Source: Escherichia phage V18
DNA: 64,000 nucleotides
Strand: one strand, 5' to 3'
Sequence record: NC_041937.1
Part shown: positions 24,620-62,936 of the stretch, one piece after another
Layout: each line of letters starts with the position of its first letter
How positions within the stretch are numbered: position 1 is the stretch's first letter
Notes under the pieces: model-generated
What the model was told of the DNA's origin: nothing
Databases searched by the model: none
Seen by the model: the letters and a program-made list of their open reading frames with translations, nothing else
Program-made: the position numbers and the translations under genes

Positions 24620-24694
24620 TGGTGGCCCTGGGTGGAATTGAACCACCGTCTGGCGATTATGAGTCGCTTGCTTGAACCTTCCAGCTACAGGGCA
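24620..24694 (-). tRNA. tRNA-Met (anticodon CAT)
   Basis: Hand-folded cloverleaf: anticodon loop CTCATAA, T-arm GGTGG-TTCAATT-CCACC, encoded CCA; position 1:72 is a T:C mismatch. Confidence 0.6.
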
Positions 24695-24770
24695 TGGTGC
24701 TGATAGCAGGACTCGAACCTGCAACCTATTGATTACAAATCAATTGCACTACCAATTGTGCTACATCAGC
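24695..24770 (-). tRNA. tRNA-Thr (anticodon TGT)
   Basis: Acceptor GCTGATG/TATCAGC, D-arm GCAC/GTGC, anticodon stem ATTGA/TCAAT with loop TTTGTAA, T-arm GCAGG-TTCGAGT-CCTGC, CCA encoded. Confidence 0.7.
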
Positions 24771-24867
24771 AAAAAGGTGCTAGGTGATGGAATCGAACCA
24801 CCTATGTATTCAACGACCAATAGATTTACAGTCTACACCGCTACCTCTACGGGATAACTCCCCAATT
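24771..24867 (-). tRNA. tRNA-like element with Tyr(GUA)-type anticodon arm; acceptor stem not resolved
   Basis: Anticodon arm GTAGA-CTGTAAA-TCTAT and T-arm GGTGG-TTCGATT-CCATC present, long variable region, but 5' and 3' ends do not pair; may be degenerate or mis-folded by me. Confidence 0.3.
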
Positions 24868-24942
24868 TGGCACCCCGTACTGGACTCGAACCAGTGTCAA
24901 CGGCTTAGAAGGCCGCTGCTTTATCCACTAAGCTAACAGGGC
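24868..24942 (-). tRNA. tRNA-Arg (anticodon TCT)
   Basis: Acceptor GCCCTGT/ACGGGGT with G:U pairs, D-arm GCTT/AAGC, anticodon stem GCGGC/GCCGT with loop CTTCTAA, T-arm ACTGG-TTCGAGT-CCAGT, CCA encoded. Confidence 0.65.
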
Positions 24943-57031: not shown

Positions 57032-57403
57032 ATGAAACTTTTTGAGTGGTTTAAAAAGTTTAAATATAAAGCTGTAGCCATCGTGCCGTGGTCAATTCAG
57101 TGGGTTGATGAAGGTGGTCTACCAATACCTGGTGACAAAGATACTGGGTACTGGATTATGATGGAGAACGGGTTTGGAAAGCGAAAGTATACGTGCACAA
57201 ACTCTACTCGATCTGCCACTAACTGGTCTAAATTCTACTGGGGAGCCAACGAGTGGGGAAGATACGCCACCAAATCAATGGCACTTATTGGTATAGCAGA
57301 GTACATTGCAGCCAGAGATAGGGTTGGAGACACTTATTACTATACTGCGGACGATATTCGTAACAGTGTTTACGTCCCACAACCACCTGATGGAGACCGT
57401 TGA
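57032..57403 (+). CDS. hypothetical protein
   Basis: 123 aa ORF. Confidence 0.4.
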   Translation: MKLFEWFKKFKYKAVAIVPWSIQWVDEGGLPIPGDKDTGYWIMMENGFGKRKYTCTNSTRSATNWSKFYWGANEWGRYATKSMALIGIAEYIAARDRVGDTYYYTADDIRNSVYVPQPPDGDR

Positions 57404-57627
57404 TGAAAGTTAAAGTTTTAGATTCAAGCTTCTATATTGGTCAGGAGCCCTTAGTGGGGAAAGTGTTTACTGCTGTCCCTAACGAAGATTACCCCGACCT
57501 TTTAAAAATAAAAGGGGCAGATCTTATTGCCGCTGGTGCATCTCATGAATGCTTTGACAGTCAGTGGACCTACAACTTTGCCCTAGGTGAGGATGTAGAG
57601 ATAGTGGAGGACGATCATGAAGGTTAA
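57400..57627 (+). CDS. small acidic protein, MKVK...DLIAAGA paralogue family member
   Basis: 75 aa; MKVKVLDSSFYIGQ ... GADLIAAGA ... EIVEDDHEG. Confidence 0.45.
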   Translation: MMKVKVLDSSFYIGQEPLVGKVFTAVPNEDYPDLLKIKGADLIAAGASHECFDSQWTYNFALGEDVEIVEDDHEG

Positions 57628-57871
57628 AATTCTTGATTCTAACGTCTACTTGGGACAATCCTTCCTGAAGGGAAAGGTAGTTCCTGCGGTATACTTTGAA
57701 GGGTTGCCGTGGGATGATCCTGTGCGGCAACATCACAGTTATGTAGGCCACAACGTAGTGTTTATCTTAGGATCAGACCTGATCGCTGCTGGTGCACCGG
57801 AATATTATTTCGGGGAAGAATCCTATTATGCCTTTGGGGCAGGGTCAGATGCAGATATTGTAGAGCTGTGA
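57617..57871 (+). CDS. small acidic protein, MKVK...DLIAAGA paralogue family member
   Basis: 84 aa; MKVKILDSNVYLGQ ... GSDLIAAGA ... DIVEL. Confidence 0.45.
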   Translation: MKVKILDSNVYLGQSFLKGKVVPAVYFEGLPWDDPVRQHHSYVGHNVVFILGSDLIAAGAPEYYFGEESYYAFGAGSDADIVEL

Positions 57872-57883
57872 TGGGTAACCGTT

Positions 57884-58279
57884 GTGAAAAATAAACTGTT
57901 CAAAGTTACAATGAAAATTCGCGGAGCTTGGAGCGTAAAGCAAGGGCGTATCCCAGAATTTGAGAAAGACTTCTACGTAGTCTCCACCTCGGAGGAGGCT
58001 GCATGCTGGCAGGCTGGCTATGCCTATGCAAGAACCTGGTACGAAGGATACCAGACTGGGGGCTATGACGGAGAAATTATCAGCAAGGGTGTGGAAGAAA
58101 TTAATGTGTTGACAAGTAAAAATTTTGTTATAGTGCATCCAGATTCCAGAGTGAAGCATTACTGGAATGCCAGAACAAAAACTTGGACACCGTTTGCAGA
58201 TTCTGCTACACCACTTTTAAACCAAAAAGCTCTTGACTCTGCCCCGAGCTACGGGGTTGTTGAAGAAAAGCTAGACTGA
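57884..58279 (+). CDS. hypothetical protein, paralogue of 60089-60484
   Basis: Shared C-terminal segment (V/M)(V/R)HP.S ... YW ... WTP with ORF 60089-60484. Confidence 0.4.
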   Translation: MKNKLFKVTMKIRGAWSVKQGRIPEFEKDFYVVSTSEEAACWQAGYAYARTWYEGYQTGGYDGEIISKGVEEINVLTSKNFVIVHPDSRVKHYWNARTKTWTPFADSATPLLNQKALDSAPSYGVVEEKLD

Positions 58280-58587: not shown

Positions 58588-58593
58588 AAACTG

Positions 58594-58622
58594 TTGACAC
58601 AACGCTTCAGATTTAGTATCAT
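58594..58622 (+). promoter_or_regulatory. sigma70-like promoter upstream of HPF-like gene
   Basis: TGTTGACA-N17-TATCAT. Confidence 0.5.
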
Positions 58623-58671
58623 TGTTTTCAAAGAGAGATAGTTATTCCCTCTTCCTTAAAAGGAACACGTT

Positions 58672-58992
58672 ATGCAAATTGAAATCACTGGCAACAATGT
58701 AGAAATCACAGAAGGTATGGTATCTTTTATTTCCCGCAAAATGTCCAAGCTGGAGCGTTTACATCCCTCTGTCAACTATGCACGTGTGAGTGTAAAAGTT
58801 GAAAATGATCACCAGGAAGTTATGGCGTTCATTTTTGACAATTCTGGAAAAGAAGTTATTGCCAAAGCTAAAGGCAGTGATGCTTACGAGGCAACTGACC
58901 GTATGGTAGATGTTGCAGCACGTCAGCTGGCTAAATGCGGTGGAAAGAAAGGTAAGGGGAAAGGCAAAGTAAAGATTGACTTTGGAGAATGA
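58672..58992 (+). CDS. ribosome hibernation promoting factor / RaiA (YfiA) family protein
   Basis: MQIEITGNNVEITEGMVSFISRKMSKLERL ... YARVSVKVE ... AKAKGSDAYEATDRMVDVAARQLAK matches short HPF/RaiA pattern; own promoter and AAGGA RBS. Confidence 0.65.
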   Translation: MQIEITGNNVEITEGMVSFISRKMSKLERLHPSVNYARVSVKVENDHQEVMAFIFDNSGKEVIAKAKGSDAYEATDRMVDVAARQLAKCGGKKGKGKGKVKIDFGE

Positions 58993-59001
58993 GGTGCTAC
59001 A

Positions 59002-59103
59002 ATGGGTGTGATTAAGAAATTAGTCACAAATGTAGAGATTGCATGCTTTGAAATTATGTTTGCAATCGCAGTTGTAGTTAATGTGTTAGGTTACGGCTAT
59101 TAA
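59002..59103 (+). CDS. small membrane peptide (33 aa)
   Basis: MGVIKKLVTNVEIACFEIMFAIAVVVNVLGYGY; GAGGTG RBS. Confidence 0.25.
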   Translation: MGVIKKLVTNVEIACFEIMFAIAVVVNVLGYGY

Positions 59104-59129: not shown

Positions 59130-59399
59130 ATGAAAATTAAATTATTCAAAACTGAGCTGGCAGACAAAAACTGTGGACTGGTTGAAGGCATGATTGTTGA
59201 AGCACAACCAGTGGACTATATGAAGGTGGTTCGTGATGCCCTAGGTGAAGGTTTTGATCTGATGGAGCCAGCTCTGCGAGAAGATGTTATCGAGATGGCT
59301 AAAAAGCACACACCTGAAGGTTTGGTGGTGTTTGTTGCACCGGGTAACGGAGAAGAGTTGATTGTAACTCCGGATGTGTATGAGATTGTAGAGGAATAA
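59130..59399 (+). CDS. small acidic protein ending YEIVEE (paralogue family B)
   Basis: 89 aa; MKIKLFKTE ... YEIVEE; similar architecture to 60561-60821. Confidence 0.45.
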   Translation: MKIKLFKTELADKNCGLVEGMIVEAQPVDYMKVVRDALGEGFDLMEPALREDVIEMAKKHTPEGLVVFVAPGNGEELIVTPDVYEIVEE

Positions 59400-59490
59400 T
59401 CCTGCTTGGATTAGCATACTTCCTCGATAAGGAAGATTTGTAATTATTTGTGGGAAAGGAATCCCAATCTCTTACCAGAGGTGATACTAT

Positions 59491-59757: not shown

Positions 59758-59949
59758 ATGAAAGTACGCTTTATTGGTGAAACAATTCCTGTGCATCTCC
59801 GGTCTCCTGAGGATTCTGCAGATCTTGCATCTCAAAAGGCGAGAGGTTATGATAAGAAAGTAACCTCAACCGATGTAGTGCTTGAGGCTACTAGCTACCT
59901 GACCCTGCTGCATTCTTTAATCATTATGGGTACTATTTCAGCAACCTGA
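59758..59949 (+). CDS. hypothetical small protein
   Basis: Start placed at ATG 59758 (MKVRFIGETIP) within track ORF 59731-59949. Confidence 0.35.
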   Translation: MKVRFIGETIPVHLRSPEDSADLASQKARGYDKKVTSTDVVLEATSYLTLLHSLIIMGTISAT

Positions 59950-60092
59950 TGAATATCGGTGAGCTTGTATTTATTAGTGGTGGAGAAATTGTTAGCAAGC
60001 TCGGTGGCGATCCAGATGTCTTTCATGAAACCTGTCCTTTTGCATTTGTGGTAGGTTCAGATGTGGAAGTTATTGAGGAGGTGCGGTAATGG
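59949..60092 (+). CDS. hypothetical small acidic protein (47 aa)
   Basis: MNIGELVFISGGEI ... VEVIEEVR; coupled to flanking genes. Confidence 0.3.
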
Positions 60093-60484
60093 TAAGCCTA
60101 TACCGTGTCGAGTATAGCTCGGATACTGTATACAACGTAAGAAGCAAAGATCGCAGCGACAGAGTGCAAGAAATGTATGTTCTTGCCGACAGTCCGTTAT
60201 CTGCAGCGTTCAAGGCAGGGGCTCTTGCATCTCGTTGGAAATTTGAAGGTGGATCTTTCTATGAAGAAACCCTTGAAGATTCTGTTGTTATTTCTTCTGT
60301 AGAGGTTTCAGATGACTACGAAGGGAAAAAGTTCGTAATGCGGCACCCACACAGCAATATTGCGTACTACTGGGACGTTCTGAACAACGAGTGGACCCCA
60401 GATCTTCAGAAGGCTACTGTGCTAACACCGTTTTTGGCAGATAAGTTCCCACCAGAAGGTAATTTATCTGCACTGTTTCAGTAA
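60089..60484 (+). CDS. hypothetical protein, paralogue of 57884-58279
   Basis: 131 aa; shared C-terminal HP.S ... YW ... WTP segment. Confidence 0.4.
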   Translation: MVSLYRVEYSSDTVYNVRSKDRSDRVQEMYVLADSPLSAAFKAGALASRWKFEGGSFYEETLEDSVVISSVEVSDDYEGKKFVMRHPHSNIAYYWDVLNNEWTPDLQKATVLTPFLADKFPPEGNLSALFQ

Positions 60485-60502: not shown

Positions 60503-60531
60503 TTGACAACGCCAACCCTGTGTGAAATAAT
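60503..60531 (+). promoter_or_regulatory. sigma70-like promoter
   Basis: TGTTGACA-N17-AATAAT with TGTG upstream of -10. Confidence 0.4.
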
Positions 60532-62881: not shown

Positions 62882-62889
62882 TGACAAAA

Positions 62890-62914
62890 AGAGGGGCCCA
62901 AGCCCCTCTTTTTA
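62890..62914 (+). terminator. rho-independent terminator
   Basis: AGAGGGGC-CCAA-GCCCCTCT hairpin followed by TTTTT. Confidence 0.55.
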
Positions 62915-62936
62915 CTATCTATGAAGGAGATTTGAG

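Follow-up and report, generated by a model that had tools for sequence, protein, structure and literature searches.

The closest described relatives of the protein considered here are the short HPF of Escherichia coli (YhbH; PDB: 2RQL, 4V8H and 6H4N) and its paralogue RaiA (YfiA, protein Y), which share the fold of the S30AE family. Together with RMF, HPF drives the assembly of 70S ribosomes into inactive 100S dimers, whereas RaiA binds 70S ribosomes without promoting 100S formation, a behaviour that by analogy may also be that of the phage protein. According to PMC7913689, HPF-family proteins occupy the same site as mRNA and tRNAs, the hibernation factors of E. coli protect the 16S rRNA of idle ribosomes from RNases during starvation, and the C-terminal extension of RaiA is believed to extend to the RMF site and to hinder 100S formation. 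Since their site is shared with mRNA and tRNAs, proteins of this family would load only onto vacant ribosomes.

HPF homologues are rare among phages. Only 128 phage records match E. coli HPF, and 117 of them are rV5-like. In the original GenBank record of phage rV5 (DQ832317) the gene is ORF144 (ABI79209), labelled 'sigma 54 modulation factor'; later phage records name it hpf, ribosome hibernation factor or RaiA, and the RefSeq name of the protein is 'ribosome-associated translation inhibitor RaiA'. Mizuno et al. (2019; PMC6375957) counted ABI79209 among the phage-encoded HPFs, and hpf was noted again in rV5 phages by Mathieu et al. (2020; PMC6969025), with rV5-like carriers of the gene recovered from infant faecal samples. 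Since annotation of the gene dates back to the first rV5 record and papers of 2019 and 2020 describe it as a phage HPF, the gene, its S30AE family and its promoter are already known from databases and literature and are not novel. Our literature search found no functional study of a phage HPF after 2019-2020, and the searchable literature yielded no data on infection timing or phenotype of phage hpf. Proteins of the same Pfam family are present in other large lytic phages, namely in PHROG 8990, Cronobacter phage GAP32 and Xanthomonas jumbo phage XaC1. They are distant from the protein of phage V18 and probably represent separate captures. The V18 protein belongs to PHROG 12469 and matches PHROG 8990 at E 1e-7, and the GAP32 protein was not recovered by the phage-record search at E ≤1e-5.

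The sole published experiment on ribosome binding used E. coli NM522 expressing the rV5 protein from pBAD24 (Mizuno et al. 2019; PMC6375957). The crude extract contained the protein, but none of its peptides turned up in the 70S/100S fractions, and its expression had no discernible effect on 100S particles. Cells were harvested at an OD600 of 1, at the end of the exponential phase, and a 20-h spin through a sucrose cushion (1.1 M, with 500 mM NH4Cl) was used to pellet the ribosomes; the text consulted describes no cellular HPF or RaiA control. The authors themselves offered three explanations: cells taken in the wrong phase of growth, a protein washed off by the salt, or binding that is genuinely lost. 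A preliminary description of the V18 gene had named missing ribosome association as the outcome that would count against it, and this is the outcome reported for that experiment. The result is real evidence against tight ribosome binding, but not against binding as such, and it is not decisive.

The hpf locus of phage V18

The window, i.e. the whole stretch of 64,000 nucleotides analysed here (NC_041937.1), is DNA of an rV5-like Escherichia phage (Vequintavirus). A segment of 2.7 kb spanning hpf is 97-98% identical to more than 100 complete rV5-like Escherichia phage genomes, which bears out the phage origin proposed in the preliminary description. The ORF described there as encoding a protein of 106 amino acids lies exactly at the position given. 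The features of the locus are:

58592-58622, + strand: sigma-70-type promoter, TGTTGACA (-35 with upstream TG)-N17-TATCAT (-10), predicted from the consensus and from the rV5 annotation
58623-58671, + strand: 5' leader with the Shine-Dalgarno sequence AAGGA at 58660-58664, 7 nt before the ATG
58672-58992, + strand: hpf-like gene, ATG start, TGA stop, 106 aa
58936-58989, + strand: Lys/Gly-rich C-terminal tail of the protein, residues 89-106, CGGKKGKGKGKVKIDFGE
59002-59103, + strand: hydrophobic ORF of 33 aa, MGVIKKLVTNVEIACFEIMFAIAVVVNVLGYGY, starting 9 nt after the hpf stop (ORF145 in rV5)
59130-59399, + strand: acidic ORF of 89 aa, neighbour of hpf in both phage lineages

An HPF homologue is encoded in 117 phage records with identities of 93-100%; every record matching the region (117/117) encodes the protein. 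ORF144 of rV5 has the same genomic position and the same annotated promoter and is about 97-98% identical to the V18 protein; the V18 copy has one additional Asn at position 8 and otherwise does not differ materially. This residue belongs to an in-frame indel polymorphism of codons 8-9 (58693-58698), in the β1-α1 loop. V18 and the eight records that are 100% identical to its 106-aa allele among the matches listed (including slur16, MaxBurger, A51.2, naswa and SophiaRose) read GNNVEITE, as does E. coli HPF, and rV5 and a sister phage lineage, described below, read GNVEITE with one Asn fewer. The navn copy is also 100% identical to the V18 allele. Some database labels in this group are at odds with the sequences. 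In OR062528, MT884008 and MT884010 the 105/106-aa HPF homologue bears the plainly erroneous label 'ATP-dependent protease La type I', and 18 unannotated GenBank records (MG0656xx) titled 'Campylobacter phage' are 97-98% identical to the E. coli rV5-like DNA considered here, so that their host label is probably wrong.

The promoter is placed in the 84-nt gap that follows the preceding ORF, 50 nt upstream of hpf. TTGACA-N17-TATCAT matches 11 of 12 consensus positions, the pattern TGTTGACA-N16-18-TATNAT occurs three times in the 64-kb window against 0.01 expected, and the corresponding position of the rV5 record DQ832317 carries the annotation 'Sigma70-type promoter; P144'. In the sister lineage, where synonymous sites of the coding DNA are saturated, the -35 block AAACTGTTGACACA is unchanged; the remainder of the leader diverges between the lineages and is ~26 nt shorter in the sister. 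By these signals, TGTTGACA-N17-TATCAT is the predicted sigma-70-type promoter of hpf.

Of the dedicated promoter and strong ribosome-binding site claimed earlier, the elements stand, but not the adjectives. The promoter does not appear to be private to hpf, since no convincing terminator was found directly after the gene and the next consensus promoter, the equivalent of rV5 P150, follows only at 60503-60531. Likewise, AAGGA with its 7-nt spacer is a good Shine-Dalgarno sequence, but at 5 nt not an exceptional one. A regulatory leader hairpin masking this site was considered and rejected, as the leader folds no better than shuffled sequences (z -0.28) and is not conserved in the sister lineage. 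A search of Rfam gave no match in or near the gene.

Judged from the arrangement of the ORFs, hpf is the first gene in a string of small ORFs. In the surrounding ~14 kb the ORFs are small, lie on the + strand and are interspersed with several TGTTGACA-type promoters, and this block looks like an early region dependent on the host polymerase, its timing being deduced from this layout. The 33-aa ORF, whose Shine-Dalgarno sequence GAGGTG overlaps the hpf stop codon, is probably co-transcribed with hpf and hence a putative member of the unit; no equivalent was found in the sister lineage. The 89-aa ORF is 58% identical to the syntenic ORF of the sister lineage (L003) and is followed by a weak terminator-like hairpin (59419-59435). 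In several GenBank records (navn, APCEc02 and others) it is this ORF that carries the label 'sigma 54 modulation factor'. It has neither a Pfam match nor any similarity to HPF and was rejected as a second HPF-like gene; since S30AE similarity is missing, the label looks like a propagated annotation error.

Several small ORFs around hpf are paralogous. On the + strand, the ORF 57400-57627 shares 42% identity with 57617-57871 (E 5e-15), each of the two matches 59949-60089, and 57884-58279 is 28% identical to 60089-60484 (E 1e-8); none of these ORFs matches a Pfam family. At 62884-62915 a perfect GC-rich hairpin of 14 bp is bordered by a run of A and a run of T (GTAAAAAGAGGGGCTTGGGCCCCTCTTTTTGT); this is probably an intrinsic terminator that works in both directions and ends the block of small ORFs. 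Elsewhere in the window, ARAGORN and Rfam agree on a cluster of three tRNAs on the - strand (24620-24942), with Met(cat), Thr(tgt) and Arg(tct).

A divergent member of the S30AE family

The motifs on which the family assignment was first based are all present in the translation: M1-x-I3-x-I5-T6-G7, V10-E-I-T-E14 and K26-L-E-R-L30 in the N-terminal part, followed by V39-x-V41-x-V43-E44, D70-x-Y72-x-A74-x-D76 and L86-x-K88. The profile search, whose failure had been named beforehand as speaking against the assignment, recovered the family above curated cut-offs. Residues 3-89 match positions 1-83 of the 88 positions of the Pfam profile Ribosomal_S30AE (PF02482) with 56.7 bits (cut-off 23.7, E 4e-15), and the general HPF/YfiA model TIGR00741 (cut-off 40.9) scores the V18 protein at 56.8 and the sister protein at 47.2 bits; on the same scale E. 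coli HPF reaches 125.9 and E. coli RaiA 120.9 bits. The best relatives in a sequence search of the PDB are the E. coli HPF entries 2RQL, 4V8H and 6H4N (E ~4e-15, residues 1-90). A long HPF as known from Firmicutes, with a C-terminal dimerisation domain after a linker, was rejected, since the protein has just 106 residues and no second domain was significant in Pfam (only RRM_9 at E 0.1, below its cut-off).

The structure prediction suggested in the preliminary description returned the expected fold. The AlphaFold2 model, computed from an alignment of 75 sequences, has a mean pLDDT of 83.8, with ~90 over residues 1-90, and a predicted β-α-β-β-β-α topology (strands 2-8, 34-43, 48-56 and 61-68; helices 14-30 and 71-90). 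Its top Foldseek match is chain x of 6H4N, E. coli HPF in the 100S ribosome, with an rmsd of 1.1 Å and 43% identity over 89 columns; PDB ranks 1-37 are all HPF, RaiA or pY chains, and weak matches to dsRNA-binding domains are returned as well. Residues 1-90 are therefore predicted to form the folded core of an S30AE (HPF/RaiA) protein. Its N-terminus resembles that of E. coli HPF (MQxxITGNNVEITE), and the near-invariant residues G7, D70, Y72, D76 and Q85 are all kept.

Within the family, the protein fits neither described type. HPF is its best-scoring sub-family, but on the HPF equivalog model NF007780 (cut-off 125) the V18 protein reaches 65.2 and the sister protein 49.8 bits, both below the cut-off, compared with 204.8 bits for E. 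coli HPF and 70.5 bits for E. coli RaiA. On the RaiA equivalog model NF007654 it scores 22.8 bits against a cut-off of 158. By these scores the phage protein is as distant from E. coli HPF as the paralogue RaiA is, and the database names 'HPF' and 'RaiA' are for this reason unjustified at the functional level. The low score on the RaiA model, together with a different tail, leaves the RefSeq name 'RaiA' unjustified at the sub-family level too. Judged by the curated models, the phage protein is a divergent third branch of S30AE and not an equivalent of either HPF or RaiA.

Conserved basic positions on the two S30AE helices form the proposed rRNA-contacting face. Their state was assessed by aligning the phage proteins to a cellular set of 86 members, made up of 84 short HPFs, E. 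coli HPF and E. coli RaiA; the HPFs of this set had been chosen by similarity to the phage protein and so are not an unbiased sample. Nine columns carry at least 60% Lys or Arg. The V18 protein keeps six of them (K23, K26, R29, R84, K88 and K92) and the sister protein five, against a cellular median of eight. Columns 17, 81 and 90 are basic in 85-90% of the cellular proteins and are occupied by V17, V81 and G90 in the V18 protein and by V, T and S in the sister lineage; all three are non-basic in just 2 of the 86 cellular sequences. In E. coli HPF the corresponding residues are R17, K79 and K88. V81 falls within the helical stripe 81-84-88-92 of helix α2. Both phage lineages also share an insertion of one residue, D56, which lengthens the β3-β4 hairpin relative to E. 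coli HPF and is absent from 94% of the cellular set. With three conserved basic residues gone, any ribosome binding would probably be weaker and easier to reverse than in the cellular proteins.

The C-terminus ends in CGGKKGKGKGKVKIDFGE, in agreement with the Lys/Gly-rich tail noted before, and residues 92-106 are predicted to be disordered (pLDDT <50). Counted after a conserved R-Q pair, the tail has 21 residues, 10 more than the 11 of E. coli HPF, and a net charge of +5. RaiA likewise extends beyond HPF length, by a tail of 29 residues that has a net charge of -3, ends in an acidic stretch and is unrelated to the phage tail in sequence and charge. Gly makes up a fraction of 0.29 of the phage tail, compared with a maximum of 0.18 in 84 cellular tails. 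The tail of the sister protein differs in sequence and is also basic, ending in K-W-D-Y where V18 has K-I-D-F. In Murica (L009) and APCEc02 (L010), single-base indels in purine runs truncate or rewrite the tail, giving proteins of 99 and 101 aa; these could be homopolymer sequencing errors or real slippage variants.

Relatives, capture and selection

A homologue of 103 aa (P0004), 64-66% identical to the V18 protein, is encoded at the syntenic position on uncultured contigs of 125-137 kb, which represent the sister lineage referred to above; this lineage is absent from the 50,697 GenBank phage records searched. Between the two phage lineages the HPF core is 70% identical, which is above most neighbouring ORFs: identities of the collinear ones range from 29% to 95%, most of them from 40% to 70%. 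Synonymous divergence is saturated between the lineages and dN is 0.30. Compared with rV5, dN/dS is 0.06 (8 synonymous and 2 non-synonymous differences), and by this ratio the hpf gene is under purifying selection. A scan of IMG/VR added just two further hpf loci, too few for a site-wise selection analysis.

Outside the phage clade, the nearest relative among 1.84 billion representative proteins is about 40-44% identical. The exhaustive protein search gave 141 matches at E ≤0.001, and a word-indexed search returned the phage clade only. The top two cellular matches, P0006 and P0011, look like HPFs of enterobacteria whose C-terminal ends are garbled. A further match, to the repeat protein P0007 (1160 aa, matched over 8 stretches), was rejected as spurious. 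As even the nearest cellular relative is just about 40-44% identical, the capture appears old and not recent; hpf was probably taken long ago by an rV5-like ancestor from a gammaproteobacterial short HPF.

Possible roles during infection

Shutdown or protection of host ribosomes during takeover, as proposed in the preliminary description, is hypothetical. The predicted fold, the low dN/dS and the retention at the syntenic site of the sister lineage are best explained by a gene encoding a functional but divergent member of the HPF/RaiA family. As to its activity, we tentatively favour an early-made, weakly binding, RaiA-like protein that keeps idle host ribosomes in the 70S state, a proposal that is plausible without being quite probable and in which ribosome binding, tail function and the advantage for the phage are all inferred. 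The gene would be transcribed by the unmodified host RNA polymerase from its consensus sigma-70 promoter; by this promoter type, which is the sole indication of timing, hpf is probably made early. The folded core would then sit in the tRNA/mRNA channel of vacant host 30S or 70S particles, like HPF and RaiA, and the longer, flexible Lys/Gly tail may run toward the mRNA exit and the RMF site in the manner of the RaiA tail, so that idle ribosomes would be held as protected 70S monomers and not as RMF-dependent 100S dimers. Owing to the missing basic contacts binding would be weak and reversible, and phage mRNAs could therefore reclaim the ribosomes quickly. A possible benefit is the shielding of idle ribosomes from RNases during host takeover; another is that ribosomes might be kept out of the deeper RMF/HPF-dependent 100S state. 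Weak binding would also explain the loss of the rV5 protein in the 500 mM NH4Cl wash. The retention of only six of nine basic columns, and of five in the sister lineage, counts in favour of a weak binder, and the unchanged 100S particles in E. coli together with the lack of a phage RMF (no homologue in 50,697 phage records) count in favour of a 70S-keeping role. The missing sequence similarity between the phage and RaiA tails argues against a RaiA-like role of the tail.

A protein that is present in the extract yet absent from 70S and 100S fractions may instead have genuinely lost ribosome binding. The fold would then have been kept for the binding of another RNA or partner, such as phage mRNA, tRNA or a host factor, which we regard as unlikely. 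The undetected ribosome association in the experiment of Mizuno et al. (2019; PMC6375957) is what such repurposing would lead one to expect. The basic residues lost at three columns in both lineages also point toward lost ribosome binding, and the D56 insertion, the TIGR00741 scores that only just exceed the cut-off where both E. coli proteins surpass 120 bits, and the weak resemblance of the model to dsRNA-binding domains fit the same idea. However, the protein keeps six of the nine basic positions as well as G7, D70, Y72, D76 and Q85, the negative experiment was made with end-exponential cells and a high-salt wash (PMC6375957), and an alternative partner is indicated by no result of this analysis.

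Doubtful to a similar degree is a suggestion of Mizuno et al. (PMC6375957), by which a low-affinity mimic displaces host HPF, RaiA or RMF and so reactivates ribosomes in starved cells. Its fold would direct the phage protein to the same site as HPF and RaiA, and a weakened basic patch combined with a basic tail approaching RaiA length would suit a blocker of RMF that leaves easily. Infant faeces, from which hpf-bearing rV5-like phages were obtained (PMC6969025), may moreover abound in starved hosts. A weak binder competes poorly, however, unless it is in large excess, and this displacement overlaps with the 70S-keeping role, from which it differs only in the proposed benefit. A bolder version, for which we see rather little chance, makes the protein a third functional class of S30AE that evolved in phages: a fast-exchanging anti-hibernation factor of low affinity that evicts or excludes host RMF, HPF and RaiA. 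The weakened patch and the Gly/Lys tail would then enable the eviction, which would wake hibernating ribosomes in starved gut E. coli or spare freed ribosomes from 100S locking or degradation.

That the protein is simply a canonical short HPF, which with host RMF converts 70S into 100S ribosomes and shuts down host translation, is very unlikely. E. coli HPF does provide the closest solved structure, the best sub-family model and a core of ~43% identity, and RMF would be supplied by the host. Against this stand an equivalog score of 65 bits where 125 are required, no better than that of RaiA, the loss of three conserved basic residues, a tail exceeding that of E. coli HPF by 10 residues, the lack of RMF in all 50,697 phage records and 100S levels that expression of the rV5 protein did not discernibly change (PMC6375957); a wholesale silencing of ribosomes would, in addition, harm the phage itself. 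Least probable is a captured host gene carried along without any role in infection, which could invoke the single-base frameshifts that truncate the tail in Murica and APCEc02 and the fact that no phenotype of hpf is known, but is contradicted by a dN/dS of 0.06, by the retention of gene and promoter in two lineages diverged to synonymous saturation and by the presence of the protein in 117 of 117 matching phage records.

The finding of the gene itself adds nothing new. What is added here, namely that a basic triad is lost, that the tail is unusual, that the gene is conserved in a sister lineage and that the one negative experiment is weak, serves mainly the design of experiments. The function of hpf, if worked out, would reveal how the pool of idle host ribosomes is handled by a lytic phage, be it by protecting them from RNases during takeover or by undoing host hibernation in starved cells, and would thus be of relevance for phage infection of non-growing bacteria and for phage therapy with rV5-like phages.
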